Shown: positions 5,530 to 64,000 of the stretch, piece after piece
Layout: each line of letters opens with the position of its first letter
Position numbering within the stretch: position 1 is the stretch's first letter
Assembly (NCBI GenBank): GCA_026014495.1
Contig: JAOZIF010000131.1
Span: forward strand, 206-64,205
Reading direction: 5' to 3'
Length of the DNA stretch: 64,000 nucleotides
Source of the DNA: Candidatus Bathyarchaeum sp.
GTDB lineage: Archaea; Thermoproteota; Bathyarchaeia; Bathyarchaeales; Bathyarchaeaceae
Notes under the pieces: generated by a model
Told to the model about the DNA's origin: nothing
Databases searched by the model: none
The model's input: the letters and a program-made list of their open reading frames with translations, nothing else
Program-made: the position numbers and the translations under genes

Positions 5530-5570
5530 CACCAAAACCAAAAAATGGGACATGCATTATTCGTTTTCGG

Positions 5571-31721: not shown

Positions 31722-31767
31722 ATACGTCTTAATTGTTGATTTGCAACGTCTATGAGGTTGTTTAAGC

Positions 31768-32400: not shown

Positions 32401-32451
32401 CCCTTTTTTGTTGGGTTTGTTTGTTTTTGTCGGAACTTTTATATACCTGTT

Positions 32452-32470
32452 AGGATGGATTATCCATCCT
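32452..32470. promoter_or_regulatory. Perfect 19-bp palindrome AGGATGGAT-T-ATCCATCCT between TATA-like box and start codon
   Basis: 9-bp perfect arms; TTTTATATA at 32437-32445; ATG at 32487; predicted TSS falls at palindrome edge. Confidence 0.45.
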
Positions 32471-32486
32471 AAAGGGTGTAACTTAA

Positions 32487-33515: not shown

Positions 33516-33557
33516 TCCTAAAATAACCCCCCCTTTTTTATACCCGAAAGACAAATT

Positions 33558-34646: not shown

Positions 34647-34658
34647 GATGACAACTGA

Positions 34659-35939
34659 ATGGTGACCTTATCGATTGATGGAATAGAGTGTTCGTATGGT
34701 TCTGTAGATGTCTTGAAGGATATTAATTTCAATGTGAAGAGTGGCGAGTTTTTAGGAATTCTTGGTCCAAATGGTTCAGGAAAAACAACTTTACTCAAAA
34801 GCATCAGTAGGGTACTCAAACCCAAGAAAGGTGCAATTCTCATAGGTACCGAAAACATATACAACATGAAAACTGTGGATGTTGCCAAACAAATGGCTGT
34901 AGTTCCCCAGAGTACCCCTGTCTCTTTTGATTTCACTGCTCTGGAAGTTGTTCTCATGGGTCGCAATCCTCACATGGCTCGATTCAAGATGGAGGGCAAA
35001 AAGGACTTGGAGATAGCAAAAAAGTCCATGGAACTAACCCGCACTTGGGAGTTCGCCGACAGACCTGTAACCGAGCTTAGTGGCGGAGAAATACAGCGTG
35101 TTATAATTGCTCGTGCCCTGACTCAGGAACCTCAAATTCTTTTACTTGACGAGCCAACAACGCACCTTGACATAAGCAATCAATTGGAAATAATGGACCT
35201 CATTAAGCACTTATGTGAAACACAAAAGTTGCTGATTGTAGCGGTTTTTCACGATTTCAACTTGGCTGCCCGATATTGTGACTCAATTATTCTGTTGAAG
35301 GACGGCAAAATTGTTGCTGCTGGAAAATCGAATGACACTCTCACAAGCGAAAACGTCAAAAAAGTTTTCAGTGTTAATACCATCGTGAAGAATCACCCTA
35401 TTACTGGACAGCTTCATGTTATTCCCATTTCACGACCCATAATTCTGCAACCAAAAAGCCTCATTGTTCACTTGATATGTGGAGGTGGCACTGGCAGTCC
35501 AATTATGAAGACGCTTCTTGATGAGGGATACCGCGTAACTGCGGGGGTTCTCAACCTGTTAGATACTGACCAAGAGACTGCTCAGCTACTGTCGATTCCA
35601 ACAACAAATGAGGCACCGTTCTCTCCGATAACCACTGAAGCCCACAAAGCGAACCTGCAGATGATTAGCAAAGCGAACGTTCTTGTTGTAACGCCGACCC
35701 AGTTTGGTGATGGTAACCTGCGTAACCTAGATGCTGCAGAAACGGCTCTGAAACAGGGAATACCGACAGTTCTACTAGAGAATGGACCAATGGGGGAGAG
35801 AGACTTTACCAACGGCAAAGCTACAGAATATCTAAAGCGCCTCAAAACCAAAGGCGCTACGACCGTGAAGAGTACTAGTGAACTGGTACAGTTTCTTGAT
35901 AATTTGGAACTAAAAAATAACAAAGAAAATAATCATTAA
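34659..35939 (+). CDS. FecE/BtuD-type ABC ATPase fused to a ~170-aa C-terminal domain of unknown function
   Basis: Walker A GPNGSGKTT, LSGGEIQRV, LLLDEPTTHLD, H-loop FHD in the first ~255 aa; extra Rossmann-like tail LICGGGTGSPIMK...LVVTPTQFGDGN. Confidence 0.85.
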   Translation: MVTLSIDGIECSYGSVDVLKDINFNVKSGEFLGILGPNGSGKTTLLKSISRVLKPKKGAILIGTENIYNMKTVDVAKQMAVVPQSTPVSFDFTALEVVLMGRNPHMARFKMEGKKDLEIAKKSMELTRTWEFADRPVTELSGGEIQRVIIARALTQEPQILLLDEPTTHLDISNQLEIMDLIKHLCETQKLLIVAVFHDFNLAARYCDSIILLKDGKIVAAGKSNDTLTSENVKKVFSVNTIVKNHPITGQLHVIPISRPIILQPKSLIVHLICGGGTGSPIMKTLLDEGYRVTAGVLNLLDTDQETAQLLSIPTTNEAPFSPITTEAHKANLQMISKANVLVVTPTQFGDGNLRNLDAAETALKQGIPTVLLENGPMGERDFTNGKATEYLKRLKTKGATTVKSTSELVQFLDNLELKNNKENNH

Positions 35940-45014: not shown

Positions 45015-45060
45015 ATATTAGGATACTAATAGCAGAACATTGTTGAAAACTAGGTTTTTT
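45015..45060 (+). repeat. Two-hairpin intergenic repeat, copy c (subtype CAGAACATTGTT)
   Basis: TATTAG-GATA-CTAATA, linker CAGAACATTGTT, GAAAAC-TAG-GTTTTT; 33 nt from cobS stop. Confidence 0.7.
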
Positions 45061-45092
45061 CTGTTTTCTTTTGATGCTGCACTTTGCGTTTG

Positions 45093-45836
45093 TTATGCCA
45101 TGATTGCAAGCATTATGATGAGTGCGATTACCCTGTTGATTTCGTTTGTTGCTCCCATAACATCGCCTGTAACACTCTCTAAGGTTTTGTTAGAGTGACT
45201 CGTTAAAACCGCTACCCCCAAGGCCATGCCCACAAGAACAAAGACAAACAATGCCCCAACCAAAACAAAGCCAACCACAGAACATAAAACCACAGACGCC
45301 AACATCTTAGCATCCTTGTTCTCCATAGCCTCAACCACATAATACCCTGAACCCTTGTAAGACGGCTTCTTCCCAAAATACGCCGTCAAAACCATGCTCT
45401 CTTTAGCTATAACCTCAGCAACCACCGCAGCCTTCAAAATATCCAAGCCACCAAAACTTCCAAACGCCAAACCCGTCAAAGCCAAAACAATAACCCCAGA
45501 CGCCACAGCTGCCGCACCAGTAAACATGTCATGCATAACCTCCAGCCTACGCTTCGTGTCGCCCCTAGCCATGGCAGCGTCACTAAAATCCAAAAGTCCA
45601 TCTAAATGATGAAAACCCGTCAACAACTGAAGAACAACCAAAACAAGAAAACCACAAATCAACTCAGGCAAAACAAAACTTGCGCCAAAACCCACAGCCC
45701 CCGCAACGGCTCCAAGAACCAAACCCACAACTGGGCACAAAAAAAAGTACTTAGACAAAGCCTCCATAGACTCCATGCCAATGGGCAAAATCGTCAAGAA
45801 CCCAAACAAACCCTTCAAGCCCTTAATTATCAACAA
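45093..45836 (-). CDS. cobS: Adenosylcobinamide-GDP ribazoletransferase (cobalamin synthase)
   Basis: 247 aa polytopic; FGFLTILPIG, HHLDGLLDFSDA motifs of the CobS family. Confidence 0.85.
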   Translation of the reverse strand: MLIIKGLKGLFGFLTILPIGMESMEALSKYFFLCPVVGLVLGAVAGAVGFGASFVLPELICGFLVLVVLQLLTGFHHLDGLLDFSDAAMARGDTKRRLEVMHDMFTGAAAVASGVIVLALTGLAFGSFGGLDILKAAVVAEVIAKESMVLTAYFGKKPSYKGSGYYVVEAMENKDAKMLASVVLCSVVGFVLVGALFVFVLVGMALGVAVLTSHSNKTLESVTGDVMGATNEINRVIALIIMLAIMA

Positions 45837-45943
45837 GCAACACCTTCAATGGACACATTTCGACTTGAACAAACTATTTCATAAGGCTCTTTTAAGCTTG
45901 CCCAACAAAAAACCCCAAAAAACTATCAGTATATACTGTTTCG

Positions 45944-45958
45944 ACAAAAAGCTTATAC
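45944..45958 (+). promoter_or_regulatory. BRE/TATA-like promoter (ACAAAAAGCTTATAC) for the corrinoid protein/mtrH-like pair
   Basis: Recurrent box about 53 nt upstream of ATG 46011; 12-bp palindrome CAGTATATACTG at 45927-45938 immediately upstream. Confidence 0.45.
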
Positions 45959-46010
45959 GCACGTCTCGCCATAAAGCCCACAGTTATTCAATAAAAAGGA
46001 TGGAATCTTA

Positions 46011-46436
46011 ATGTCTTGGTTAAAATCCATGATGGAAAAAGAACCGCCTGAACCAGAAAACCCCATAGGAATCGTTGTAATTGGCACCCTAGACCCCGAC
46101 GTACACCTAACCCCCAAAGAAATGGTCCGCAAATCACTAACAAAAGCACAATTCAAATGCTACGACGTAGGCAAAAAAGCTCCAGCAGCAGACTTCGCAT
46201 CAAAAGCCAAAGAAGTCAACGCAGACATCATCGCCGTATCAATAAACACAGCACCAGCAAAAAACAACATACCAGCCTTAATGTCAGCAATCGAAGCTGC
46301 AGGCCTAAAAGGCAAAGTCACCATAATGATCGGTGGCGCAGCAGTAGACGAAGATGACGCTAAGGAAATCGGTGCACTATTCGGCGAGACTAGGGAAGAA
46401 GCTGTAGCCCTCGCAAAGAAGGCACTAGGCAAATAA
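46011..46436 (+). CDS. Minimal corrinoid (B12)-binding domain protein
   Basis: 141 aa Rossmann-like B12-binding domain: DVHLTPK (DxH present, Gly of DxHxxG missing), IIAVSIN, IMIGGAAV; no N-terminal helical cap domain. Confidence 0.7.
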   Translation: MSWLKSMMEKEPPEPENPIGIVVIGTLDPDVHLTPKEMVRKSLTKAQFKCYDVGKKAPAADFASKAKEVNADIIAVSINTAPAKNNIPALMSAIEAAGLKGKVTIMIGGAAVDEDDAKEIGALFGETREEAVALAKKALGK

Positions 46437-46480
46437 GTTCAGCGGTTAGTATTCCGCAAAAAAATGAAAAGTGAGCTAGA

Positions 46481-47398
46481 ATGTTTAGATTCGAAAAGGA
46501 ACAAAAAATAATTAACGCTGGCGGCATCAAACTCGGAGGCCAACCTGGAGAATGCCCAACCGCTCTTACTGCAACAATCTTTTACATAGGTCACAAGATT
46601 GTCACAGATAAGAAGGAAGGAAAATTCGACAAGGCACGCGCAGAGACTCTCATCAACAGGATGGACGAGCTCTCTGACATGACAACAAACCCATTCATCT
46701 TGGATGTTGTAGGCACTTCCGTACCCGCATTCCAAAGCTACATCAGCTTTATCGCAGAAGTAACCCAAGCACCCATACAAGTAGACGCTATAAGCCCAAA
46801 ACTCAGAATGGAAACACTCAAATGGGCACACGAAGTTGGGCTGTCCGAAAGGCTCGTTAACAACTCAATCTACAGAGGCGTCAAAGAAACAGAGCTACAA
46901 AACCTAAAGGACTGCGGCGTAAAAGCATCCATTATCCTATGTGACAACCCAACAGACGACACCGTCCAAGGCAAACTCGATGTTTTGCCCGGAATCCTAG
47001 AAATGGGAGACCAAGCAGGAATCGAAGGCGCTCTAATCGACACAGCCATGCCCTCATGGGGTATCGGCGTAGGCGCAGGCCTCAGGTCCATATATGTCAT
47101 CAAAGAAATGTATGGTGACCGCGGAGCCGTCGGAACTGGAATCGGAAATGTATCCGATACACTAGGATGGGTCAAAGGCAACTTCTCAAAAGACGTCAAA
47201 AAAGCAACTGACGCAGCACAGAACGCCATACTGCCAATGATCGGATGCGACTGGATCATGTTTGGTCCAATTGAATTCGCAGAATTCGTCTTCCCCGCAG
47301 TTGCAGTAGTTGACACGTACATACTAACTGCGACCGCAGAGCTTGGTACACGACCAGCAGAAGAAGGCAAGCATCCTCTCTTCAAGCTAGTTGGCTAA
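46481..47398 (+). CDS. mtrH: MtrH-family (pterin-binding) methyltransferase
   Basis: MFRFEKEQKIINAGGIKLGGQPGECPTALTATIFYIGHKIVTDKKEGKFDK closely follows the MtrH N-terminus as recalled; 305 aa. Confidence 0.8.
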   Translation: MFRFEKEQKIINAGGIKLGGQPGECPTALTATIFYIGHKIVTDKKEGKFDKARAETLINRMDELSDMTTNPFILDVVGTSVPAFQSYISFIAEVTQAPIQVDAISPKLRMETLKWAHEVGLSERLVNNSIYRGVKETELQNLKDCGVKASIILCDNPTDDTVQGKLDVLPGILEMGDQAGIEGALIDTAMPSWGIGVGAGLRSIYVIKEMYGDRGAVGTGIGNVSDTLGWVKGNFSKDVKKATDAAQNAILPMIGCDWIMFGPIEFAEFVFPAVAVVDTYILTATAELGTRPAEEGKHPLFKLVG

Positions 47399-47575
47399 AA
47401 CCCTCTAAACATACCCGAAAATTTGGGCTATGTGCCCATCTTTATTTTTTTCTTTAATTCTCTAGTTTTATTATTGCATGTTCTTGCCTCAAAACTAGTT
47501 CTGTTGCACAACCAAATAGGCAATTGAAGAACTACGCTTTTATGTAAAACTGTCAATAAGAAAACTGGTGCACAC

Positions 47576-48145
47576 ATGTCCTCATTAGAAACAGTTATCC
47601 TAGACGTTCTAGAGACAAAGCAACCCAAGAACGTGAAAGAGCTAATTCACTTAGTTCAACAACAAGTTGACGCTACCTTAGATGAAATAGAACAAGAAAT
47701 AAAGAAACTTCACAAAAAGGAACTGGTGGCGCTTGAAGAACCAACACTCCAAAAACAAGACTTCATTAGCTTTGTGTCTCCAAGAAACAGCCGCTGGTTC
47801 TGGCTCCTCATTGGCATTTCTCTTCTTTCGTTCGTTTCAATCCTTTTTCTTCCAGAAACACAAATCCCAGTGTCCTATTTACGTTACATCTTCGGATTTG
47901 TTCTTGTAGCCTTTTTACCTGGATACTGCCTAACAGAAACCCTGTTCCCAATACAAACTGCACTGGACCTAATAGAAAGAATAACTTTTTCAATAGGACT
48001 AAGCTTTGCCATCACCGCCCTAGTGGGTCTATTCTTAAGCTTCACACCCATCGGCTTAACCTTGGCCACAGCACTTCCAGCTTTAGGCTCGATAGTAATC
48101 ATTTTGGCTATGGTGGCTTTAACTCGAAAATACAAACTCCAGTAA
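47576..48145 (+). CDS. DUF1616-like protein (N-terminal wHTH-like, C-terminal TM region)
   Basis: RYIFGFVLVAFLPGYCLTETLFP motif and 4 TM; N-terminal helical domain. Confidence 0.55.
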   Translation: MSSLETVILDVLETKQPKNVKELIHLVQQQVDATLDEIEQEIKKLHKKELVALEEPTLQKQDFISFVSPRNSRWFWLLIGISLLSFVSILFLPETQIPVSYLRYIFGFVLVAFLPGYCLTETLFPIQTALDLIERITFSIGLSFAITALVGLFLSFTPIGLTLATALPALGSIVIILAMVALTRKYKLQ

Positions 48146-48195
48146 CAATCTAGTCTGCAAAATCAACAGAATAAACACTGCTTAATTTTTATATT

Positions 48196-48222
48196 AAAAA
48201 AAGAGAAAAAAGGCCGAAGCCT
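48196..48222 (-). terminator. Hairpin + oligo-T terminator downstream of paralog P1
   Basis: Minus strand reads AGGC-TTCG-GCCT followed by TTTTTTCTCTTTTTTT. Confidence 0.5.
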
Positions 48223-48245
48223 AATGGTCAAAAAAGGTGGGTACT

Positions 48246-49148
48246 CTAAAAGAGTTTATCCCATCTGTTGAACAGATCGAGCGCTGGTTGACCGCCGTAG
48301 TCGCTTAGGGAATCTCTGTATTCGCCCATTTGGGTTACTGTTTTCTGGAACTTTATCATGTTGTCTGCAACGTCTGCAAGGTAAATTATGCCGTCGATGC
48401 CTGTTCTCATAACACGAACTGAAACTCTGATTAGCTGGTCAACTGGTGGGCAGTGGGCTGGGTCGTCTCCTGGACCGCAAACGTAAATGTTAGAATACAC
48501 TGGCTTCTCTGGGAATATTCTCCTGAATGCTCGTGCAATCATTTCCCAGTACCATGAAGTTGCGTAGTTCTGAGAGAACATGACGATATTGAATGCATCA
48601 CATATCTTGTAGAGTTCAGGGAAGTCCATACCGAAACGTTGGTCTGCGTTTGCTGGATCGGGCAAAACTGCCAATACCAATTTGGTTTTTACACGTTCTT
48701 TTACATCTTTGATGAACTGCGTGATGGTCTGGTTGCGCCATTCAAACCAGTCTAATCCACTCTCTTTCCATAGTTTGGTGCATCTCTCGCAGGTGCAGTG
48801 TCCGTGGTCAGCAAAGTGCCAGCTGTTCAAGAATATTGGTTGGCCTGTTTGGTCAACTGCGTTTTCAATGTAATTCAATTGTTCTTCTCTGAATTCTGGA
48901 ACTGTTGGGCAGAGAACGTCCCAGTGCAAGTTGAACTGGTTGTTTCCTCTTACCGCACGGCCCCTCTTTGATTCAGAGACCCATTCTGGGTGTGCACGGC
49001 CAGATACGTTGTCTCCAAAAACTGCAATGTTGTTCCACATGTCATCTTGTGGTGTTCCGCGTCTTCCTGTCTCTGGTTTCAGTCGATAAACGTCAAAGTC
49101 AAATCCTGCAACCTTCTTTGCTTGAAAAAGGTAATTTCCGAATTCCAT
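48246..49148 (-). CDS. Uncharacterised Cys4 (C...CxCxxC) TIM-barrel-like protein, paralog P1
   Basis: 300 aa from ATG 49148 (aligned with P2/P3 starts); conserved WDVLCP, HFADHGHCTCERC, SGLDWFEWRNQT, LPDP, RTGIDG. Confidence 0.8.
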   Translation of the reverse strand: MEFGNYLFQAKKVAGFDFDVYRLKPETGRRGTPQDDMWNNIAVFGDNVSGRAHPEWVSESKRGRAVRGNNQFNLHWDVLCPTVPEFREEQLNYIENAVDQTGQPIFLNSWHFADHGHCTCERCTKLWKESGLDWFEWRNQTITQFIKDVKERVKTKLVLAVLPDPANADQRFGMDFPELYKICDAFNIVMFSQNYATSWYWEMIARAFRRIFPEKPVYSNIYVCGPGDDPAHCPPVDQLIRVSVRVMRTGIDGIIYLADVADNMIKFQKTVTQMGEYRDSLSDYGGQPALDLFNRWDKLF

Positions 49149-49190
49149 GCTTATTCCTCGCTTTGAAACTGCAAAATACATCGATGCAGA

Positions 49191-49203
49191 TTATATAAGC
49201 TTT
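49191..49203 (-). promoter_or_regulatory. BRE/TATA-like promoter for P1 (minus strand AAAGCTTATATAA)
   Basis: About 45 nt upstream of ATG 49148; SD GAGGAA 5 nt before the start codon (GAGGAATAAGC-ATG). Confidence 0.45.
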
Positions 49204-49331
49204 GCTTCATTACCCAAAAATTTTTCAATATAAAAATCCTGACCCGAAATAGAAACCGATTTCTAATCTAGCCACAAAAAAGCGAAAAACGGGTTTTTTC
49301 TCTAAAAAGTGACTTACAATAATTGTGTTTG

Positions 49332-49367
49332 ACAAAAATAAAAAATGGGGTGCGCAAAAAGGCGCAC
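49332..49367 (-). terminator. Hairpin + oligo-T terminator downstream of paralog P2
   Basis: Minus strand: GTGCGC-CTTTTT-GCGCAC then CCCATTTTTTATTTTTG, starting 9 nt after the P2 stop. Confidence 0.6.
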
Positions 49368-49376
49368 TCTATGATG

Positions 49377-50279
49377 TTACTTGAGTATGCTTTCCCACTT
49401 GTCGACAAGGTCTAAGACAGGTTTTCCGCCGTAGCCTTCCAGATCTTCGCGGAGTTTAACATCTTCGACACACGCTTTCTGGAAATCTTTCATGATTTGA
49501 GCGTTTGCTGCTAGGAATATGAGTCCGTCTACTCCAGTTCTTGCTATACGGCATGCCGTCTTTAGTATCTGTGTATGGTTTTCAAGCTCGCTGGGGTCGT
49601 CGCCTGGTCCACGTATGTATAGACCTGGATATACTGGTTTCTTCAGCAATTTTTTGAATCCACGAGAAAGTGATTCAAAGTACCATGGGCTTGCATAAGT
49701 TTTAGACCAGTGTGGAACAACAAAGGCTGTTGCATATTCTGCTAGTGCATCTAAGTCTAGACCGAACCTTTCATAGCAGTTAACTGGGTCAGGAAGCAGT
49801 CCAACATAGAATGGTTTGTTTTTGACGCGTTCTTTTGCGGCTCCGATAAAGTCTGTGACTGTCTGGGCTCTCCACTCTAGCAGCTCCATTCCGCTTTTTG
49901 CGTGGGCTGCTTTGCATCTGGGGCATGTGCAGAATCCGTGGTCTGCGACGTGCATGCTGCTGACGGTTATTCCTTTGGTGCTATCAGCTGTTTTTTCGAT
50001 TAGGTCAAGCATGTAGTCTATCATTTGTTTTTCTTGGTTGCAAACAATGTCCCATCTAAGATTGTATTTTTTGTTTGTTCGCAGTGCAGGTCCGTTGGCG
50101 GATTGTGCAACCCAGTCAGGATGCTTGCTAGCCATGTTGTTGTCGCCGAAGCAGGCGATGTTAGTTGTCATTTCTGGATTTGGAGTTCCAACGATTCCTC
50201 GTTCTGATTTAAGGCGGTATACTTGTAGGTCGAATCCTTCAACAGGTGTAGGTTCATAAATGAACATTCCAAACTTCAA
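49377..50279 (-). CDS. Uncharacterised Cys4 (C...CxCxxC) TIM-barrel-like protein, paralog P2
   Basis: 300 aa, TTG start after GAGGAA; WDIVCN, HVADHGFCTCPRC, SGMELLEWRAQT, LPDP, RTGVDG. Confidence 0.8.
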   Translation of the reverse strand: MKFGMFIYEPTPVEGFDLQVYRLKSERGIVGTPNPEMTTNIACFGDNNMASKHPDWVAQSANGPALRTNKKYNLRWDIVCNQEKQMIDYMLDLIEKTADSTKGITVSSMHVADHGFCTCPRCKAAHAKSGMELLEWRAQTVTDFIGAAKERVKNKPFYVGLLPDPVNCYERFGLDLDALAEYATAFVVPHWSKTYASPWYFESLSRGFKKLLKKPVYPGLYIRGPGDDPSELENHTQILKTACRIARTGVDGLIFLAANAQIMKDFQKACVEDVKLREDLEGYGGKPVLDLVDKWESILK

Positions 50280-50396
50280 AGCTAATTCCTCTTTTCAGAA
50301 TCGAGAACTTACCTAAAGTAAGCTATAAGGATTGCTACTAATTCAAAGAAAGCGAATCAAAAGTATTTTCGATGTGCAGTGTCAGCTTTTGTCTTT

Positions 50397-51548
50397 CTAT
50401 GTTTCAGACTGGTCTGCGGCGACCTTTGAATACACATAATACATTACCGCAGAAAGTACGCTTCTGGTAAACCAGCCTATTTCATCCGAAAATGTTGAGC
50501 TAAGATAGTCCGGTCTCACGTATTTTGATTGTGTTTCTTCTTTTGAGAGGTAATCTGTTACTGCTTTTTGGAGTATCTTATGAAGCACAAAGCTTCTACC
50601 ATACTCGTTGGCTGGGTTCTCTGGAATCAAGTTCACTTTTGCGTCTTCATCAAGTCTGAGTCCAGCAATAATCAGAGCTGCAATATTTTGGTCGGACAAC
50701 ACTTGTTTTAGTTCTGTCGTGAACTGTTTCCTTTTTTCATTATCTTCGCGAAGGATAGGTCGAATTTGTGAGAAGAGAGTCGTCAAGTTTTCAATTGTGA
50801 TTCCTCTTTCTGCGAGCCTCTTTGTTAGTGGTCTGTTGGGAACCAATTTTTCTTGTTTGAATATTGCCTTTTTGAGTGCTGCCTTAACTGATTTGCCGAT
50901 CATTTCTCCTATTGCTGTTCCGCTACCCGCATACTGTATTGTGCGCCCCTGTTTTGTGCACGCTATTACAACGCTGTCTGTTACCGTTCCAGTTGCTATT
51001 TCACCTGAAAAACGACTTCTAACATCTAGTTCTCTTAATGCTGCTGCTTTTGCTTCAGTTGCTGTAGCTACCGCATTTATCATACAGCTGTCCGTTAGAT
51101 TTCCTTCAACCAGCACGATAGTGTTGATTGTGCCCCATTTCTTGAAGGGAAAAGCGCTCTGCTTTGAGGCTATTTCATCGCCTGGGGTGGCTGCGAAGTA
51201 TGCGCCTGCAGTAACAAAGGCTGTTATGGTTATGTCCTCAAATTTTTTGGTTACTTTTTCTACGTTTTTCATTCTAGCTGCGGTCATTATTGCTACAACT
51301 TGGTCTTGAGAAACACCCAGTTGTGATGTTTCTTCTGTGAGAAAGTCTTTGGCATCTTTGTGAACTTCATCGTCCATGTCGCTTCCTGCGTCTTCTTCAA
51401 CTTGGACGTTTACTATACAGTTTGCTTCTTTTGAACCACCATTCAGAACCGCAGAGCTTACGATTTTCAGCGGGGTCTTTGACCTTAAAATAAGCTTATT
51501 TCCTTGTATTTCAGCTTCAACGGAACTGATATCGGTTTCCAGTTTCAT
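50397..51548 (-). CDS. cbiZ: Adenosylcobinamide amidohydrolase (CbiZ) with ~150-aa C-terminal extension
   Basis: GTINTIVLVEGNL, AVATATEAKAAALREL, ATGTVTDSVVIA match CbiZ; residues from about 235 to 383 form an extra helical domain. Confidence 0.8.
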   Translation of the reverse strand: MKLETDISSVEAEIQGNKLILRSKTPLKIVSSAVLNGGSKEANCIVNVQVEEDAGSDMDDEVHKDAKDFLTEETSQLGVSQDQVVAIMTAARMKNVEKVTKKFEDITITAFVTAGAYFAATPGDEIASKQSAFPFKKWGTINTIVLVEGNLTDSCMINAVATATEAKAAALRELDVRSRFSGEIATGTVTDSVVIACTKQGRTIQYAGSGTAIGEMIGKSVKAALKKAIFKQEKLVPNRPLTKRLAERGITIENLTTLFSQIRPILREDNEKRKQFTTELKQVLSDQNIAALIIAGLRLDEDAKVNLIPENPANEYGRSFVLHKILQKAVTDYLSKEETQSKYVRPDYLSSTFSDEIGWFTRSVLSAVMYYVYSKVAADQSET

Positions 51549-51716
51549 CTATATTTTCCTTCTATCTGCTTGACAGAAATGATGTGCCAAATATCTGGTT
51601 TTTGGTTATCATTTCGCCGTTGCGGAGTGATTTCTAGGGTCGTTCTCCCTTTTGTTGTTTATGCCTCAAATGGAATATTTACACTTTTAGTGATTATTAT
51701 AAAAGCTGTTTTGCGA

Positions 51717-51902
51717 CTACCCTTCGATTTTTATTGCCTTTTTTGGGCACAGGTCTTCGCAGATTCCGCATAGTGTGCATGAGTCAAAATCAACTATCAC
51801 TGGCTTGTTTTCTTGGAGGCTAAAGACTGCCATTGCACAACAGTCAACACATGTGTATGATTGGCAATCTTTGCATTTGACGTAATCAATTTCAATCTTC
51901 AT
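51717..51902 (-). CDS. Small 2x[4Fe-4S] ferredoxin
   Basis: 61 aa from ATG 51902; CKDCQSYTCVDCC (atypical spacing) and CTLCGICEDLCP (canonical). Confidence 0.7.
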   Translation of the reverse strand: MKIEIDYVKCKDCQSYTCVDCCAMAVFSLQENKPVIVDFDSCTLCGICEDLCPKKAIKIEG

Positions 51903-51992
51903 AGAGGGGCACCAGCAACATTTAATGTCAAAACTAATTAACGTCATTAGATTTAAATTTAAAGATAATAATTCCGTCAGAGGTCAAATGCG

Positions 51993-52883
51993 ATGAAGAT
52001 TGGAACCGTAATCTATGAGCCTGCAATAGTGGATGGCTTTGATATTTCCGTTTACTACTCAAAACGTGTCGATGGTGTGCTAGGAAAACCCGCAAAAGGC
52101 ATGTACAACGACATCACCTGTTTTGTCGACGCTAAAGCCATACGAGAAAAACCAGAACTGGTGGCACTTTCACCAAACGGTCCTGCAACAAGAACAAACA
52201 AAGCCTTCACTCTACCATGGGACTTTGTGTGCCCAACAAACGAGGAATATCAAACCCAAGTTCTTCAATTCATCAAAGACACCGCAAAAGAAGACGTAGA
52301 AGGAGTAACTCTGAACCTCTACCACTTCCCCGAAGAGAGCTTTTGTACCTGCGAGCGCTGCACAAAACAACACAAACAAAGTGGATTAGATTGGTTGGAC
52401 TGGCGTGCACAAACAGTTACAGACTTTATTCGAAGAGCCAAAAAGTTGGTTACGCAGCCCTTTGGCATCGAAATATGGCCTGACCCAGTTTTGGCTAAAG
52501 AACGGTTTGGTTTAGACTTTGAAGCCCTTGCAGAGTATGTGGACTTTTTCCATGTTCCTTTGTCTTCACACAATTACGTGACAATGTATTGGGTAGACAC
52601 GCTAACGCGGGACTTTGTGAAGCTTCTCAAAAAACCAATCTTCATAGAATTAAGTGCAGAAATTCCCAGAGCAGTAGAAACAAAGGCTCTTCTAAGAACA
52701 GTCGCATACATCTCTAGCCATAACGTTGAAGCAGTTCTGCTTCTGGTTCATGATGCAGAGCGCGCAAAAGAACTATGCACCACCGCAATAAATGACACTA
52801 ACTACCGAAGCTGGCTAGACAAGTTCGGCTTTGAGAACATGAACAAAATTATCGAAAAGTGGGAAAAAATCTACGGGAGCTAG
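51993..52883 (+). CDS. Uncharacterised Cys4 (C...CxCxxC) TIM-barrel-like protein, paralog P3
   Basis: 296 aa; WDFVCP, HFPEESFCTCERC, SGLDWLDWRAQT, WPDP; C-terminal third diverged from P1/P2. Confidence 0.8.
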   Translation: MKIGTVIYEPAIVDGFDISVYYSKRVDGVLGKPAKGMYNDITCFVDAKAIREKPELVALSPNGPATRTNKAFTLPWDFVCPTNEEYQTQVLQFIKDTAKEDVEGVTLNLYHFPEESFCTCERCTKQHKQSGLDWLDWRAQTVTDFIRRAKKLVTQPFGIEIWPDPVLAKERFGLDFEALAEYVDFFHVPLSSHNYVTMYWVDTLTRDFVKLLKKPIFIELSAEIPRAVETKALLRTVAYISSHNVEAVLLLVHDAERAKELCTTAINDTNYRSWLDKFGFENMNKIIEKWEKIYGS

Positions 52884-53671: not shown

Positions 53672-53732
53672 ATTGCCCTGTTAAAGTTGCTAATAAACCT
53701 TAAATCTGTATCATTCTTTTGTAACTTACATT

Positions 53733-58959: not shown

Positions 58960-60444
58960 TTATTTTGATTGCAAGTTTTTGATGAATTTTCCAACAAGAT
59001 TTGGTTGATTCATTACAGACTTCAATGTTTTCCTAGGATACTTAATGTAGTTGATTATGGATATCTTTCTATACTCCTTTATTGCCCACATTGCTATCTC
59101 TTTTACATCTGTAGCTGTGAAATTTTCGGTCTCTATAAGCGGCAATCCCCAAGTTTGTCTAACTTCAGCAAAAGCCCGTGGCGTCAATTCACCTCGAACA
59201 TACCCTTTATTTGTGCACTCTTCGTGGAGTCTAGTGCCGTATGATGGCGTTGCAAAAAGAAGATGCATTCCAACGTCATATTTTCTTTTCAGCATAAGAG
59301 CAAATTTGACGGTGTTCATCATTGTTTCTTTAGTTTCACCAGGGAAACCAATGATGTAAAATGCCCCTGTTTTTAGTCCTATCTTCTTGCATCGTTTAGC
59401 AAATTTGATTACTTTCTTTAATTTTAGGTCTTTGTGGATTATGTTATCTAGAACATACTGGTCTCCAGATTCGATGCCAACAAAGACGCTTTGGCATCCT
59501 GTTTTCTTCATTTTCTTTAGAAGCTCTAACGTCAAGTAGTCTGCTCTTACGCCATTTGGTGTTTCCCACTGGAATTTGATGTTTTTTTCAATTATTTTGT
59601 CGCAAATTGCTTCAAATCTTTTTATGTCAAATGTGAGGTTGTCATCCTCAAAGTATATTGTCTTAACGTGGTATTTGTTGACCAAATACTCTATGTGACC
59701 TACAACATATTCTACTGAATGTGCTCTGAATGTCTTTCCCATGTGCAGGTGAACCGCACAGAAAACACAATTGAATGGGCAGCCCCTGCTGGTTATCATA
59801 GATAATGCGTTGCTTTGAAAGCTGCGATACTCTATTGTTGTTGGATTAAGATACTTTTCCATGTCAATTAAATGGTAAGCAGGGTAGGGTAACTCGTCCA
59901 GATTTTTGTTGAAAGGTCTTGGAGCGTTTAGCTTCACCTTTTTGTTTATACGCTGGGCTACTCCTTGTACATCGTCTATCTTCTTTTTTCCCTCAAAGAA
60001 CTTGACAATGTCTAGCATAGTGTATTCTCCCTCGCCAATTGCTACAATGTCGACGTTCTTTGTCTCTTCCAAAAATTCTGTTGGCACAACTGTTACATGT
60101 GGACCTCCAACAACAGTCAAAATACTCTGGTCTACTTCTTTGACAATGTCCGCAACTCTAATAGCGTGTTCAATTTGAGTTGTGAATGGATTTGCTATGC
60201 CTACAATGTCTGGTTTTCTTTTCTGGATTTCCTCTTTTATCATTTCATATGGCATGCCAACTTCTGTAGTGTCTCCATTTTTTCGGAATGGCACATCAGT
60301 CATGAATGCATCCAAAATTTCCGTTTCGTATCCTGCTTTGTCTAGCACCGCGGCTATATACATCAAACCTAAGGGAAGATTTGCAGCTGGCGGGTCTGAA
60401 CCTGGAAAAAACGTTTGCGGTGGATTGATGAGTAGTATCTTCAT
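58960..60444 (-). CDS. B12-binding-domain radical SAM enzyme (class B type)
   Basis: N-terminal MKILLINPP...LGLMYIAAVL B12-like domain, CPFNCVFC radical SAM triad. Confidence 0.85.
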   Translation of the reverse strand: MKILLINPPQTFFPGSDPPAANLPLGLMYIAAVLDKAGYETEILDAFMTDVPFRKNGDTTEVGMPYEMIKEEIQKRKPDIVGIANPFTTQIEHAIRVADIVKEVDQSILTVVGGPHVTVVPTEFLEETKNVDIVAIGEGEYTMLDIVKFFEGKKKIDDVQGVAQRINKKVKLNAPRPFNKNLDELPYPAYHLIDMEKYLNPTTIEYRSFQSNALSMITSRGCPFNCVFCAVHLHMGKTFRAHSVEYVVGHIEYLVNKYHVKTIYFEDDNLTFDIKRFEAICDKIIEKNIKFQWETPNGVRADYLTLELLKKMKKTGCQSVFVGIESGDQYVLDNIIHKDLKLKKVIKFAKRCKKIGLKTGAFYIIGFPGETKETMMNTVKFALMLKRKYDVGMHLLFATPSYGTRLHEECTNKGYVRGELTPRAFAEVRQTWGLPLIETENFTATDVKEIAMWAIKEYRKISIINYIKYPRKTLKSVMNQPNLVGKFIKNLQSK

Positions 60445-60661
60445 TGTGGCATCTTTAGAGATGGTGTCTTAGGATGCTTTTATCATTTTGTTGGTTTGTT
60501 AACGTATTTTTTCGTAGACCAATGGTATTTTTGTCAATCTGTGTTTCCGTTCTATTTTCTGTGCGCCTTAGACTCCATGAATTCTTGGTTACGATGCTGC
60601 TTTAAACGGAAAAGTTAAATATAATCTTGAATCCCTAAATCACTCCGGATGGTTATTATTA

Positions 60662-61723
60662 ATGGTAAAAACCGCGAGGAACAGGCCCCTTTTGTATATG
60701 ATGACTTGGCGATGTACACGGGCTTGTAATTACAATTGTGTAAATTGCAGCTTTGGTTCAAATCCTTACCCTATTAATGAGATTGATACCAAGGGTGGAA
60801 TGCGAATAGTTGATGAACTTCATGCGATGGGCGCGAAATGGTTCGGGTTGAGTGGTGGAGAGCCCCTTGTCCGTAAAGACATTTTCGAAATTATTGCACA
60901 CGCTAAAGACCTTGGGATGAATGTGAGCCTCATTTCTAACGGCTACTACGTTAAAGGGGACATCCTTGATCAGCTAATAAAAAACGAGGTCATGACTGCC
61001 ATAAGCGTTGACGGAACAGAAGCAACAAATGATATTACGCGCGGAAAAGGCTCCTATGCAACAGCGCTAAAAGCTATGGAGAAGCTGTCTGATGGCGGAA
61101 TTTTTGATTGCATCGTATCAACTCTAAATAAAAATAATTGTTCAGAAGTAGATCACGTTGCTAAGTTGGGTTACAAGTATAATGCTACGCGTGTTGTTTA
61201 TCATAATTATATTCCAGTTGGCAGAGCTCAGCATCATCTGGAGTTGGCTCCTACGCCACAGCAGTATGAAGTGGTTATGAACCGAATCTACGATTTGATG
61301 ATGGAATACAAAGATAAAATGAGTATTAACGTGTATTGTCCATTCTTTGCTAGAATCGCCAAGCAACGAGGTATGCCTGACTTTGATTATTGGTTTAACA
61401 ACGTTTTCCTTGGACAATGTTTCATTGGCGGCAGATACATGGGGCTTTTGGAGAATGGTGACATTCGACCTTGTGGCTTTAATGAAGGTTACCGTATGGG
61501 AAACATCAAAGACAAGTCAATGACCGCGCTTTGGAATGAAATGCAGACCTCAGAGTTCACAACTAAGCTCAGAGACAGAAGTAATTTGAAGGGCAAATGT
61601 GGTGTTTGTGAGTACCGCGAAATTTGTGGTGGCTGCAGAACCCGTGCAGAAACCTACACTGGAGACCTGTTTGCTTCTGACCCCGCGTGTGCGTATGTGC
61701 CTAAACTGTTGCGCGAAAAATAG
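60662..61723 (+). CDS. Radical SAM/SPASM-domain enzyme, AhbC/AhbD/NirJ-like (paralog 3)
   Basis: CNYNCVNC, GGEPLV, KGKCGVCEYREICGGCRTRAE; high identity to paralog 2 by eye (not counted). Confidence 0.85.
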   Translation: MVKTARNRPLLYMMTWRCTRACNYNCVNCSFGSNPYPINEIDTKGGMRIVDELHAMGAKWFGLSGGEPLVRKDIFEIIAHAKDLGMNVSLISNGYYVKGDILDQLIKNEVMTAISVDGTEATNDITRGKGSYATALKAMEKLSDGGIFDCIVSTLNKNNCSEVDHVAKLGYKYNATRVVYHNYIPVGRAQHHLELAPTPQQYEVVMNRIYDLMMEYKDKMSINVYCPFFARIAKQRGMPDFDYWFNNVFLGQCFIGGRYMGLLENGDIRPCGFNEGYRMGNIKDKSMTALWNEMQTSEFTTKLRDRSNLKGKCGVCEYREICGGCRTRAETYTGDLFASDPACAYVPKLLREK

Positions 61724-61741
61724 AAGGAGCTAATAAAAAAG

Positions 61742-63028
61742 TTATTTGTCAGCGAACTCCCATGCGATGTTCGCTTTCCAAAGGTCTCCCATTTTGGTTA
61801 TTTTTATCTCTTTTTCGTTTATTTCGATTAGACCCTTGTTTTGCAGTCTTTTCAGTTGCTCGGGATACACATCTTCTGGGAGCTTTCCAAATTTTTCTTG
61901 GAAATCAAGTTTATCCACTGGCAAGCGCAGGTAAAGTTTTGTCATTACTTTGCGCATCATTTCTTTTTGTGTAGATTCTGAAAGTTTTGCGATTGGGAAT
62001 TTTCCCTCGTTGACGGCTGCTATGTAATCTTGTGCGTTTTCGATGTTAGAGTACGAAAATCTTTGAAGATATCCCATGAAACATCCTGCTCCTGTTGTTA
62101 GGATGCCTGCCCATGGCCATCCGTTTAAGCAGTTTTCTTTGGCGTGCCATTCATCTCGGGAGTAACGGTCGTGACCTATTGGTTTGTAGCCTGCTTCTGT
62201 GAAAAGTTCGTATCCTGCGACGTACATTTGTTTCTCTAATTCTTTGTCACATTGCGGCGGAACTTTTCCTTCTTTGAGTTGTTTATCTAGCATTGTTCCT
62301 GGGCTGACTTCAAGGCAGTATGCGTCAACTTCTGCGTCTAGTTCGATTGCTTTCTTTACTGAGTCTGTCCAGCTTTCCAATGTTTGTCCTGGAATGTTGT
62401 ACATTATGTCGATGCATACGCACAGTCCAAGTTTTCGGGCAAGTTTTATTTCGTTTGCTACATGTTCTGCACTGTCTGGGAGGTTTAGCATTTTTCTGAG
62501 TTTGTCGTCGAAAGTTTGTGCTCCCATGTCTACTTGATAGACGCCATATTCTGCGGCTGCAACTAGTTTTTCTTCTGAAAAGCTTCTGGAGGAGCCTGTG
62601 ATTTTGATAAAATAATCATCTGTTGTGGTGAAGTTGTCTTCACAGAATTTTATGAGCCCAAACATCTGCTCTTTAGTCATGAGGCTTGGGGTTCCTCCGC
62701 CTAGAACTATTTCGTCAAATTCGCTGGTTTGGACGTACTTTGTTTTGGCGTACATCATTAGCTCTTTTCTTAGTGCCTCAAGATACGGTTCCATCATGCT
62801 GCTAGAGTATGGGTTGTTTGGGTAGTAACAAAATGTGCATCTGGAATCGCAGAATGATATCCATGGCTGGAGCTCCATCACTTTGTTTGATGTGTTCTCG
62901 GTTGCCAAGAACTCCATGAACGCGTTATATGTTTCAGGTGCGATATCCGCGTAATCCCTGTATGTGTACGGAGGCCAGCTCTCTCTTGAGTTGTATGTAT
63001 TTTCTTTTTCTGGGATGGACCCTTTCAT
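61742..63028 (-). CDS. HemN-like (coproporphyrinogen-dehydrogenase family) radical SAM enzyme
   Basis: CDSRCTFCYY triad, GGGTPS, HemN_C-like tail; ATG 63028 preferred over upstream TTG 63169. Confidence 0.8.
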   Translation of the reverse strand: MKGSIPEKENTYNSRESWPPYTYRDYADIAPETYNAFMEFLATENTSNKVMELQPWISFCDSRCTFCYYPNNPYSSSMMEPYLEALRKELMMYAKTKYVQTSEFDEIVLGGGTPSLMTKEQMFGLIKFCEDNFTTTDDYFIKITGSSRSFSEEKLVAAAEYGVYQVDMGAQTFDDKLRKMLNLPDSAEHVANEIKLARKLGLCVCIDIMYNIPGQTLESWTDSVKKAIELDAEVDAYCLEVSPGTMLDKQLKEGKVPPQCDKELEKQMYVAGYELFTEAGYKPIGHDRYSRDEWHAKENCLNGWPWAGILTTGAGCFMGYLQRFSYSNIENAQDYIAAVNEGKFPIAKLSESTQKEMMRKVMTKLYLRLPVDKLDFQEKFGKLPEDVYPEQLKRLQNKGLIEINEKEIKITKMGDLWKANIAWEFADK

Positions 63029-63192
63029 GTTAATTTCCCCAGATGGTGGTTTAATACAATATTTACGGATAATATAAACTTGCGTTTTTGATTGTGCTAT
63101 GTTGTTTTTCAGAAAAACTTGTTCTGTTACTATTGCGTTACTAATGTGCGTGTGAACTTTTGGAAGCAAATGTGTGTTGTGCTGAAATTTTC

Positions 63193-63241
63193 AGAAAAAA
63201 AGCTGTTTTTCAACAATATACCTCTATTAGGAGACTAATAT
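63193..63241 (-). repeat. Two-hairpin intergenic repeat, copy d (subtype AGGTAYATTGTT), opposite orientation
   Basis: Minus strand: TATTAG-TCTC-CTAATA, AGGTATATTGTT, GAAAAA-CAGC-TTTTTTTC. Confidence 0.7.
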
Positions 63242-63329
63242 GCTGCACAAACGTGTGAATAAAGTATGTCAATAACGTGCGCCTGTTCTGTTACATATTG
63301 GCCTGATTGTGTTGCTCTGTTTTGTTGTG

Positions 63330-64000
63330 TTATATGTATTTGACGCTCTTTTTTAGGACACTTATGATTCCGTCTTCTCTGATTTTTCGTAGTATCCTCT
63401 TTGGTGACCTGTTAAATGTCATGTGGAATCTTTGCTGAATCTCAGACACCATTTCGTAGTCAAACTCTTTGGTCTTAACGTAAGTCACAAAGTCTTCAAC
63501 ACGGTCATAGAGTCCATTCTCTATCACTTCATCATACAATTTGCTGCCCGGAACCGCGACGTATGTATTGAACTGGCACCAGTCAGGGTCCAGTTTTCTT
63601 GCAAACTTGAATGAGGCTTTCATGTCGTTGACTGTTTCTCCAGGTATTCCCAGCATGAATGAGCATGCTGTTCGTATTCCTTCTTCTTTACATAACTTGA
63701 ATGTTTGAGTGATTTGTTCGATGGTGATTTTTTTGTTGAGTTTTTCTAAAATGCGTGGAACCCCTGACTCTACTCCCAGCCATATTGTCTGGCATCCAGC
63801 AGTCTTCATTTCTCGTAGCAGTTCTCGCGAAATCTGGTCGACTCTGGCGTCGCATCCCCATTTGATGTCCAGTTTCTCCTTTTTTATTAGGCTGCATAGT
63901 TCTGCTGTTCTTTTCTTGTTTATGGTGAAGTTATCGCCTACAAAATATACTCCGTTTGAGCCAAAGTTCTGTGTTAGGTGTTTGATTTCTTCTACAACTC
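63330..64000 (-). CDS. B12-binding-type radical SAM enzyme, C-terminal part (5' end beyond window)
   Basis: My extension of the reading frame upstream of 63809 stays open to position 64000 (…GDNFTINKKRTAELCSLIKKEKLDIKWGCDARVDQISRELLREMKTAGCQTIWLGVESG), typical class-B radical SAM barrel. Confidence 0.75.
   Translation of the reverse strand, partial: VVEEIKHLTQNFGSNGVYFVGDNFTINKKRTAELCSLIKKEKLDIKWGCDARVDQISRELLREMKTAGCQTIWLGVESGVPRILEKLNKKITIEQITQTFKLCKEEGIRTACSFMLGIPGETVNDMKASFKFARKLDPDWCQFNTYVAVPGSKLYDEVIENGLYDRVEDFVTYVKTKEFDYEMVSEIQQRFHMTFNRSPKRILRKIREDGIISVLKKSVKYI

Follow-up and report, generated by a model that had tools for sequence, protein, structure and literature searches.

Four radical SAM genes at the edge of the window

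Four consecutive radical S-adenosylmethionine (rSAM) genes occupy the end of a stretch of Candidatus Bathyarchaeum sp. DNA that was analyzed over its full length of 64,000 nucleotides (nt) and is called the window throughout. The genes are as follows (aa, amino acids).

58960..60444, minus strand: class-B rSAM gene B12_1, 494 aa; Pfam PF02310 (B12-binding) 80 bits, Radical_SAM 84 bits
60662..61723, plus strand: SPASM rSAM gene SPASM_C, NirJ/AhbD-like, 353 aa; Radical_SAM 69 bits, SPASM 35.8 bits
61742..63028, minus strand: HemN-like rSAM gene HemNl, class-C type, 428 aa; Radical_SAM 67 bits, HemN_C 33.8 bits
63330 to beyond 64000, minus strand: second class-B rSAM gene B12_2, C-terminal 222 codons with the rest beyond the window edge; Radical_SAM match to Pfam positions 33-166 only

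All four open reading frames (ORFs) reported by a first-pass annotation of this DNA were present, and Pfam backed their assignment to three classes. Each matched PF04055 with 67 to 84 bits against a cut-off of 29.5, and B12_1, SPASM_C, and HemNl exceeded the cut-offs for PF02310 (32 bits), PF13186 (SPASM; 21.5 bits), and PF06969 (HemN_C; 24 bits), respectively. The CxxxCxxC motif was read in three of the genes (CPFNCVFC, CNYNCVNC, and CDSRCTFC), while that of B12_2 falls outside the window and reads CPYNCAYC in its ortholog at L001, one of the loci collected from relatives (each given an L-number). The B12-binding domain of B12_2 also lies outside the window, where its class could not be read directly; that it is a class-B gene, as had been proposed, follows from its orthology to the 447-aa L001 protein, which is 76% identical and carries both PF02310 and PF04055. 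Across L001 and L030, B12_2 was 76 to 79% identical to full-length orthologs of 447 to 453 aa. None of the four genes reached an NCBIfam equivalog cut-off, and on sequence grounds all four are uncharacterized members of known superfamilies that belong to no characterized family. The original count of four rSAM genes held for this run but missed two more SPASM rSAM genes elsewhere in the window, at 35961-37043 and 37347-38462.

The strands of the four genes are -, +, -, - in order, and the gaps between them are 217 bp, 18 bp, and 301 bp: B12_1 and SPASM_C diverge across the first, SPASM_C and HemNl converge on the second, and the third separates HemNl from the truncated class-B gene upstream of it. 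A TATA-like box was present in each gap, giving separate promoters. The mixed strands, the individual TATA-like boxes, and the rarity of the exact set (classB447, HemNl, SPASM_B/C, and classB494 together at 3 of 42 eligible loci, all of them close relatives) argue against a single operon or cassette, and the genes form three transcription units. No further genes lie between them and no credible small peptide ORF was found in the three gaps, which bears out the earlier statement that no precursor peptide, lipid, or heme gene separates the four. The arrangement therefore lacks the precursor gene beside its maturases that a cluster for a peptide that is ribosomally made and modified after translation (RiPP) would show. 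Across 117 loci, the sole conserved small protein was a 2x[4Fe-4S] ferredoxin, and the other "conserved small ORFs" were noncoding blocks readable in several frames and on both strands. The totals for one published Bathyarchaeia genome are 11 class-B genes and 17 of the SPASM type (PMC11697101). Because rSAM genes make up about 1% of genes by our own estimate from these counts, a run of four is very improbable by chance.

Features of the HemN-like, SPASM, and class-B proteins

HemNl is the conserved core and the most distinctive member of the cluster. Although the ORF list also contained a longer version (61742-63169), the ATG at 63028 is taken as the true start because homologs are 428 to 431 aa long and a conserved B recognition element (BRE)/TATA promoter and Shine-Dalgarno sequence stand just upstream. 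The protein combines an rSAM core, a HemN_C domain (33.8 versus 24 bits), and a HemN-type fold, which places it in the HemN-like class C: phmmer aligned residues 36-423 to HemN in the Protein Data Bank (PDB) entry 1OLT (E 1e-22), and Foldseek matched its AlphaFold model to 1OLT with a template modeling score (TM) of 0.71, the model having a mean predicted local distance difference test score (pLDDT) of 74 and being unreliable at the family-specific residues 284-321. The fold search confirmed HemN only, and a sequence search of the PDB returned only remote relatives, HemN and NocN. The NCBIfam scores were 203.1 versus a cut-off of 400 for ChuW/HutW (TIGR04107), 156.5 versus 205.4 for HemW (TIGR00539), and 136.9 versus 325 for HemN (TIGR00538), placing the protein outside the ChuW/HutW and HemW families. 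It also does not qualify as a HemN coproporphyrinogen dehydrogenase, since, in addition to its low score, it lacks the fourth cysteine (HemN C71 aligns with Y69) and the YxH motif (HemN Y56/H58 align with Q54/W56). Neither Q54 nor W56 varies within the family, and an invariant QPW replaces YxH ahead of the cluster cysteines. Also invariant and family specific are an N-terminal WPPYTYRD and C129, C203, C205, C300, and C316; these five cysteines, which are additional to CxxxCxxC and missing from Escherichia coli HemN, may form an auxiliary cluster or a set of metal or substrate ligands. HemNl belongs to a tight, Bathyarchaeia-only clade in which identities are at least 63%; the nearest full-length outgroup shares no more than 36%. 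Relatives with at least 64% identity occur on hundreds of contigs in public data, and in a library clustered at 50% the family had one full-length representative (63%), followed by full-length matches at 33 to 36%. The nearest outgroups are themselves subthreshold ChuW/HutW-like proteins.

SPASM_C exceeded the SPASM/twitch cut-off (35.8 versus 21.5 bits for PF13186), and the C-terminal CGVCEYREICGGCRTRA is visible in its sequence. Its NCBIfam scores were 201.6 versus 500 for AhbD (TIGR04545), 188 versus 395 for TIGR04053, 176.5 versus 500 for NirJ2, 151.3 for NirJ1, and 147.6 for NirJ (NirJ-type models TIGR04051, TIGR04054, and TIGR04055; AhbD/NirJ equivalog cut-offs of 500 to 650 bits), and it therefore falls outside the AhbD and NirJ families. 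A PDB sequence search gave only remote relatives, the best of which were PqqE and SkfB. The two additional SPASM genes and the large proteins that follow them are listed here.

35961-37043, plus strand: SPASM_A, NirJ/AhbD-like (Pfam, NCBIfam)
37347-38462, plus strand: SPASM_B, NirJ/AhbD-like (Pfam, NCBIfam)
38492-40777 and 41417-43645, minus strand: two large proteins of 761 and 742 aa with hydrophobic N termini and no Pfam or NCBIfam match

SPASM_A begins 21 bp past the transporter ATPase gene, both in the window and in at least seven relatives. SPASM_B and SPASM_C are 90% identical as proteins and 84.5% identical as DNA, with the similarity confined to the coding sequence and ending exactly at its ends. 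Their codon differences comprise 105 synonymous and 35 nonsynonymous changes (3:1), and both genes appear to be under purifying selection. Given this synonymous excess and the restriction of the similarity to the coding sequence, the two are a retained paralog pair and not an assembly artifact. In many relatives, one SPASM_B-type gene joins the transporter block straight to HemNl, and the window looks like that same arrangement split by about 22 kb. The hydrophobic N termini of the 761- and 742-aa proteins suggest that they are membrane proteins; both are conserved directly after SPASM_B in distant relatives (L026, L032, L078, L090, L108, L110, and L115).

The two class-B proteins, which share only about 30% identity, come from different subfamilies. 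B12_1 scored 200 versus 575 bits for the Sden_1168 P-methyltransferase model, 189 versus 578 for HpnJ, 156 versus 481 for BchE, and 121 versus 450 for BzaD. The BchE cut-off (TIGR02026) was also missed by the partial B12_2 (79 bits) and by full-length orthologs of neighboring subfamilies (221 to 251 bits), as was that of BzaD/BzaE (TIGR04385, cut-off 450), for which B12_1 scored 120.7 bits, the partial B12_2 49.7 bits, and the orthologs 141 to 146 bits. BchE was the best NCBIfam match of the L001 ortholog of B12_2 (221 versus 481 bits); it ranked first for x_B12_447 and x_B12_464 and fourth for B12_1, and for x_B12_484 it came second, with HpnJ ahead by 1 bit. A PDB sequence search again gave only remote relatives (AprD4, TokK, and OxsB). 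An NCBI protein with 100% identity to B12_1 is encoded on a contig of a Bathyarchaeota metagenome-assembled genome. Across lineages, at least four class-B subfamilies, about 30 to 49% identical to one another, alternate in the position next to HemNl. B12_1 is followed, 62 bp on and in the same direction, by a PQQ-propeller gene (PQQ, pyrroloquinoline quinone), and members of its family adjoin GT4/Asn-synthase-like genes at L037 and SufBD/Dph6-like genes at L036.

Conservation of the rSAM association across Bathyarchaeia

Of the 117 loci collected, two (L036 and L037) were reached by way of the 494-aa class-B protein and the rest through HemNl, and all were annotated by BLASTP against the window genes and genes from relatives. 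Neighbors were counted within a radius of 10 kb at the 31 loci, out of 102 nonidentical HemNl loci, that had at least 5 kb on both sides. A SPASM rSAM gene was found near HemNl at 29 of the 31 loci and a class-B rSAM gene at 23; at least one other rSAM gene was present at 30 and at least two at 28. A PQQ-propeller gene occurred at 20 of these loci, GT4 at 16, Amidohydro_3 at 15, CbiB at 12, CobD at 6, a BtuC-like gene at 5, and CobS and CbiZ at 4 each, so that linkage to cobamide genes was recurrent and not universal. The rSAM association was kept through at least six gene orders, at HemNl identities of 64 to 91%, and a seventh order had HemNl without it.

Order A: GlmS-BtuF-Dph6like-BtuF-BtuC-BtuD-SPASM_A-SPASM_B, convergent with HemNl (L013, L046, L058, L061, L067)
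Order B, the window's own: CbiB-Amidohydro_3-SPASM363-classB484-classB447-(Fer4_5)-HemNl-SPASM-classB494-PQQ-GT4-AsnS-like-CN_hydrolase-MtgB-like-CbiZ
Order C: Amidohydro_3-CbiB-classB484-classB464-HemNl-SPASM; includes the complete Ca. Bathyarchaeum tardum genome
Order D: PQQ-SPASM363-classB468-HemNl-u227-RnfD/FrhB fusion-SPASM_B-two large membrane proteins-corrinoid protein-MtrH; lineages at 65-68%
Order E: CbiB-classB464-Amidohydro_3-SPASM363-...-HemNl-CobD-...-SPASM472-CobY-like-CobS; Bathycorpusculum and related lineages
Order G: classB474-methyltransferase-classB462-HemNl
Order F (the seventh): HemNl alone between SufBD and FeoAB

From order D, the window retains SPASM_B, the two large proteins (big1 and big2), CobS, the corrinoid protein, and MtrH. 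The trio SPASM363-Amidohydro_3-CbiB recurs beside HemNl at Bathy-8-type loci and in Bathycorpusculum, and at L022 CobD (274 versus 290.6 bits) abuts HemNl, with a CobY-like nucleoside triphosphate transferase and CobS nearby. Both the clustering in relatives and the continuation of the cluster past the window edge held up: HemNl, SPASM, and class-B rSAM genes stay associated across Bathyarchaeia, and in close relatives a 484-aa class-B gene, a 363-aa SPASM gene, Amidohydro_3, CbiB, and a 464-aa class-B gene follow. The module is present in the cultured Ca. Bathyarchaeum tardum (L007) and in a Bathy-6 metagenome-assembled genome (MAG; L020, Bathy6-F112_MillA). Ca. Bathyarchaeum tardum, which was grown in enrichment culture, is a cobalamin auxotroph (PMC10477458), and the study from which the Bathy-6 MAG comes reports that most of its Bathy-6 MAGs have a B12 pathway that is nearly complete, with BzaCDE-like genes at a B12 locus and no BzaAB/F reported (PMC11697101).

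Two membrane Fe-S proteins of the electron-transfer kind that adjoin HemNl in relatives were absent from the window. They are a 388-aa Fer4_5 protein resembling NapH/RdhC (L001, 8554-9720) and a 728-aa RnfD-like/FrhB-like fusion (L032, 12590-14773).

Cobamide genes in the window

The window itself invests heavily in cobamide uptake and salvage, as the first-pass annotation had noted: it holds a BtuFCD-like importer, a CobS above its cut-off, and a CbiZ-CobZ fusion. These and the genes around them are listed below.

30849..35939, plus strand: corrinoid-type ATP-binding cassette (ABC) importer with two BtuF-like proteins, a BtuC-like permease, and a BtuD-like ATPase (Pfam Peripla_BP_2, FecCD, ABC_tran)
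31768-32400, plus strand: Dph6-like PP-loop ATPase between the two BtuF-like genes; PAB0415 family 188 versus 250 bits
34659-35939, plus strand: the BtuD-like ATPase, 426 aa, about 170 aa longer than a typical BtuD
45093-45836, minus strand: CobS, 141 bits versus a cut-off of 110
46011-46436, plus strand: corrinoid protein
46481-47398, plus strand: MtrH/MtgA-like methyltransferase; MtrH 283.5 versus 271 bits
Within 45093..52883: DUF1616 membrane protein
48246-49181, 49377-50279, and 51993-52883: three paralogs of about 300 aa, probable MtgB group, with only a weak DUF4838 match
50397-51548, minus strand: CbiZ-CobZ fusion; CbiZ Pfam 186 bits, CbiS-like 158 versus 250 bits, CobZ-like alpha-ribazole phosphatase domain
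51717-51947: 2x[4Fe-4S] ferredoxin, 76 aa, adjoining the CbiZ-CobZ fusion and conserved in relatives
52901-53671, minus strand: CN_hydrolase (Pfam)
53733-54719, plus strand: Asn-synthase-like PP-loop enzyme (Pfam)
54791-55981, plus strand: GT4 glycosyltransferase (Pfam)
56000-58897, minus strand: membrane-anchored PQQ-type beta-propeller (Pfam)

The best NCBIfam matches of the importer were BtuC (329 bits) and the corrinoid ABC ATPase PRK09536 (337 bits), with BtuF scoring above IsdE; all were under their cut-offs. The 426-aa ATPase matched positions 2-351 of 402 of the long "corrinoid ABC transporter ATPase" model. The three ~300-aa paralogs were 42% identical to one another, and the published Bathyarchaeia MtgB is about 300 aa long and occurs in two copies of about 45% similarity beside mtgC/mtgA and a membrane protein (PMC10989822). 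Judged by gene content, the regions 46011-50279 and 51993-52883 look like the Bathyarchaeia O-demethylase cluster of that study. No activating-enzyme gene was evident in this O-demethylase-like cluster, matching the literature, in which the corrinoid activating enzyme of the Bathyarchaeia O-demethylase was absent or unidentified in both cultivation studies (PMC10989822, PMC10477458). The block of CN_hydrolase, AsnS-like, GT4, and PQQ genes adjoins the SPASM/HemNl pair at L001, L004, L011, L035, L043, L069, and L071.

The divergent CN_hydrolase and GATase-less Asn-synthase-like pair (52901-54719) resembles a split glutamine-dependent amidotransferase. Together with the Dph6-like protein, this pair represents enzymes of a carboxylate-amidating type that are embedded among the corrinoid genes.

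A TP_methylase ORF was considered as support for a tetrapyrrole theme and rejected, since this sole "tetrapyrrole methylase" ORF of the window is the diphthine synthase Dph5 (302 versus 114 bits). The ORF called as diphthine synthase overlaps at its 5' end, on the opposite strand, a 100-nt tRNA (20541-20640, plus strand; Rfam 57.6 bits) that was missed by ARAGORN and fits an archaeal intron-containing tRNA. The window also holds a heliorhodopsin gene (21588-22412, minus strand; Pfam 301 bits), in an anaerobic sediment archaeon.

HemNl promoter and a repeated intergenic element

Two features occupy the gap between HemNl and B12_2, and the second of them recurs in the window.

63071..63088, minus strand: BRE/TATA promoter of HemNl, AAAACGCAAGTTTATATT, with a GGGGA Shine-Dalgarno sequence closer to the ATG
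63180..63240, minus strand: element of about 55 nt, consisting of the palindrome TATTAG-N4-CTAATA, then ATTGTTGAAAA, then a T-run
7414-7470, 5474-5530, and 45016-45075, all plus strand: other copies of the ~55-nt element

The promoter (AAAACGCARGTTTATATT) is unique in the window, and together with the Shine-Dalgarno sequence it is nearly invariant across 12 aligned loci whose flanks diverge. The element at 63180..63240 lies between the stop of the class-B gene and this promoter. Its four copies in the window compare with 0.13 expected and are found upstream of HemNl, upstream of the window homolog of a 385-aa gene that is HemNl adjacent, upstream of a neighboring 362-aa ORF, and beside CobS; in relatives, its position is conserved, either upstream of HemNl or in the gap that separates class-B447 from Fer4_5. 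A structured-RNA reading was rejected because z-scores of about -1 gave no significant fold, and a relaxed Rfam scan of the region upstream of HemNl returned no riboswitch-type match, its one subthreshold match being to a CRISPR direct-repeat family (63088-63118; 21 versus 50 bits, E 0.056). The element may be a regulator site bound by protein at the DNA level or a terminator-like element. If regulatory, it would tie HemNl to both CobS and the 385/460-aa gene family. Two ORFs that have an element copy upstream, 5932-7314 and 4277-5365, are unannotated and membrane or secreted.

A possible role in cobamide-linked radical chemistry

We tentatively favor the reading, to which we give somewhat less than an even chance, that the module carries out cobamide-linked radical chemistry, that is, the tailoring or servicing of a corrinoid or of a lower ligand; both the corrinoid-related substrate and any specific reaction are what we infer here. 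The four genes would then be a lineage-specific juxtaposition within a conserved, Bathyarchaeia-wide "corrinoid island." Its core is the ChuW/HutW-like class-C HemNl, which is accompanied by SPASM enzymes of the NirJ/AhbD-like kind and has variable, BchE-like class-B enzymes on its flanks, and this set stands among genes for corrinoid import (BtuFCD), nucleotide-loop stripping and rebuilding (CbiZ/CobZ, CbiB, CobD, and CobS), and corrinoid use (MtgC/MtgA/MtgB). The core enzymes would act on a corrinoid-related substrate through reductive radical chemistry that depends on SAM, with electrons from dedicated membrane Fe-S proteins, as found in relatives, where the Fer4_5 protein and the RnfD/FrhB fusion may be such donors. 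The outcome would be a tailored imported corrinoid or lower ligand, or serviced corrinoid cofactors. Families that act on tetrapyrroles were among the best scoring for every rSAM type (ChuW/HutW for HemNl, AhbD/NirJ for SPASM, and BchE for class B), all below their cut-offs. Since HemN-like and SPASM enzymes need no B12, cofactor economy alone cannot explain the conserved core, which favors cobamide-linked chemistry. The presence of the module both in the auxotroph Ca. Bathyarchaeum tardum and in a Bathy-6 MAG suggests a late-stage, tailoring, or handling role, as opposed to ring synthesis or simple scavenging.

Several observations weigh against this reading. The four genes form three transcription units, and their exact set recurs at only 3 of the 42 eligible loci. 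B12_1 travels with GT4, Asn-synthase-like, and PQQ-propeller genes and not with HemNl, and it can occur without HemNl or SPASM genes. For both CbiB and CobS, about 60% or more of the loci have no copy within 10 kb, and at L002, L003, and L066 HemNl, placed between SufBD and FeoAB, stands alone. Because the loci share a phylogenetic history, the counts given above are not of independent events. Bathyarchaeia carry dozens of rSAM genes. We know of no cobamide step that needs HemN-like or NirJ-like enzymes. One class-B enzyme from Bathyarchaeia is a proven lipid desaturase (bioRxiv 10.1101/2025.10.20.683597). The specific proposal of the first-pass annotation, that these four enzymes act in several steps on one substrate, is likewise left without support by the three transcription units, the rarity of the exact set, and the ~30% identity of the class-B pair. 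Its suggestion that the substrate is a tetrapyrrole/cobamide or a membrane lipid fared better in its first half, which is the best-supported context, than in its second, for which no neighborhood offered a lipid-synthesis gene.

A more specific version of cobamide-linked chemistry, which we regard as improbable, is that the module fills a gap, either as (a) an anaerobic route for making or tailoring the lower ligand of the cobamide or the side chains of the corrinoid or as (b) the activating or loading system for the O-demethylase corrinoid protein. Route (a) is suggested by the BzaCDE-like genes without BzaAB/F in Bathy-6 and by the PP-loop amidating enzymes and amidohydrolases interleaved with the cluster. 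System (b) is suggested by the activating enzyme that is absent or unidentified in both cultivation papers, and the NapH-like Fer4_5 protein or the RnfD/FrhB fusion would provide it with low-potential electrons.

The foremost alternative is co-location without a common substrate, in which independent enzymes of an rSAM-rich genome, acting for example on lignin-derived aromatics, lie near B12 genes only because class-B enzymes require cobamide or are regulated jointly. Such an explanation is possible, and we consider it unlikely. It would account for the three transcription units with their variable membership, for the low identity of the class-B pair and the occurrence of B12_1 away from HemNl, and for the PQQ propeller within 10 kb at 20 of 31 loci; moreover, Bathyarchaeia genomes carry 7 to 20 class-B and about 17 SPASM-type genes each, for which lignin chemistry with PQQ-domain proteins has been proposed (PMC11697101). 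However, the HemN-like and SPASM enzymes use no cobamide and yet are the most conserved members, SPASM_A begins only 21 bp past the transporter ATPase gene, and the association is kept in six or more rearranged architectures.

A role of the rSAM trio in modifying a ribosomal peptide or in maturing a protein, for instance the secreted PQQ propeller or a corrinoid protein, would fit the co-occurrence of SPASM, class-B, and class-C rSAM enzymes in RiPP clusters, the PqqE and SkfB matches of the SPASM gene, and the adjacent PQQ-propeller gene. This role is improbable, since no conserved small ORF was found and the conserved intergenic blocks are noncoding, no protease or exporter genes were seen, and the class-wide HemNl conservation of at least 63% is atypical for secondary metabolism. 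We consider quite improbable an anaerobic breakdown of heme or another tetrapyrrole for iron, in which HemNl would act in the manner of ChuW/HutW on imported heme and the SPASM enzymes would trim side chains. Among named families, ChuW/HutW gives HemNl and its nearest outgroups their best scores, and at L002 and L003 the surroundings of the HemNl gene, which sits between SufBD and FeoAB, include a DtxR-type repressor, a flavodoxin, and an importer of the BtuFCD-like type, with the SufBD/ABC part of this arrangement also present at L066. Against this, the score is half of the ChuW cut-off (203 versus 400), QPW is invariant where HemN-type proteins have YxH, the transporter components score best as corrinoid type, and most loci have CbiB, CobD, CobS, or CbiZ and not iron genes. 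Tailoring of membrane lipids, with class-B and other rSAM enzymes methylating, cyclizing, or desaturating lipids of the glycerol dialkyl glycerol tetraether type, is the least probable: archaeal lipid modification does use rSAM and class-B rSAM enzymes, including the Bathyarchaeal tetraether desaturase (bioRxiv 10.1101/2025.10.20.683597), and a class-B ortholog scored 164 versus 360 on a lipid-type B12 rSAM model, but no Tes, Grs, prenyltransferase, or reductase family gene was present in any Pfam-annotated neighborhood, and HemN-like or SPASM enzymes are unreported in the desaturase work.

Bathyarchaeia are among the most abundant archaea of anoxic sediments, and the lignin O-demethylation proposed for them needs cobamides that many cannot make (PMC10989822, PMC10477458, PMC11697101). 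If cobamide-linked chemistry is correct, a conserved rSAM module wired to corrinoid import, remodeling, and use points to new cobamide chemistry or handling and provides candidate genes for the origin or tailoring of the lower ligand and for the missing corrinoid activating enzyme. The presence of the module in the enrichment-cultured Ca. Bathyarchaeum tardum opens the question to experiment.

Comparison with known systems

Literature searches returned no paper that describes the module or ties HemN-like or NirJ-like enzymes to corrinoid salvage, and earlier work went no further than recording that rSAM genes are abundant and that BzaCDE-like genes occur at a B12 locus (PMC11697101). Comparison with the Ahb/NirJ, ChuW, and BchE families, each a possible home for one of the enzymes, left all scores under the curated cut-offs. 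HemNl shares with ChuW/HutW and the wider HemN/HemW/HemZ family the HemN fold, the CxxxCxxC motif, and the HemN_C domain, and ChuW/HutW is its best named model. It differs in its score (203 versus 400), its separate Bathyarchaeia clade, its five extra cysteines and WPPYTYRD motif, and a context of cobamide genes instead of heme uptake. The SPASM enzymes resemble AhbC/AhbD/NirJ of the alternative heme and heme d1 syntheses in having an rSAM core and a SPASM domain, with AhbD, TIGR04053, and NirJ2 as the top models for all four paralog types. Unlike those enzymes, the paralogs score 200 to 235 against cut-offs of 395 to 650 and have no AhbA/B or siroheme genes nearby; one lies 21 bp past a corrinoid importer gene and another beside CbiB. 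The class-B genes have the N-terminal B12-binding and rSAM domains of BchE and BzaD/BzaE, and for the subfamilies next to HemNl the BchE model ranks at or near the top, whereas the scores are 156 to 251 versus 481 for BchE and 120 to 146 versus 450 for BzaD, and the genomes are not phototrophic.

The known archaeal corrinoid salvage pathway has, to our knowledge, no rSAM step. The genes of that pathway (BtuFCD, CbiZ, CbiB, CobY, CobS, and CobZ) surround the rSAM cluster both in the window and in relatives, whereas here HemN-like, NirJ-like, and class-B rSAM enzymes, Amidohydro_3, and enzymes of the PP-loop amidating type are interleaved with them.

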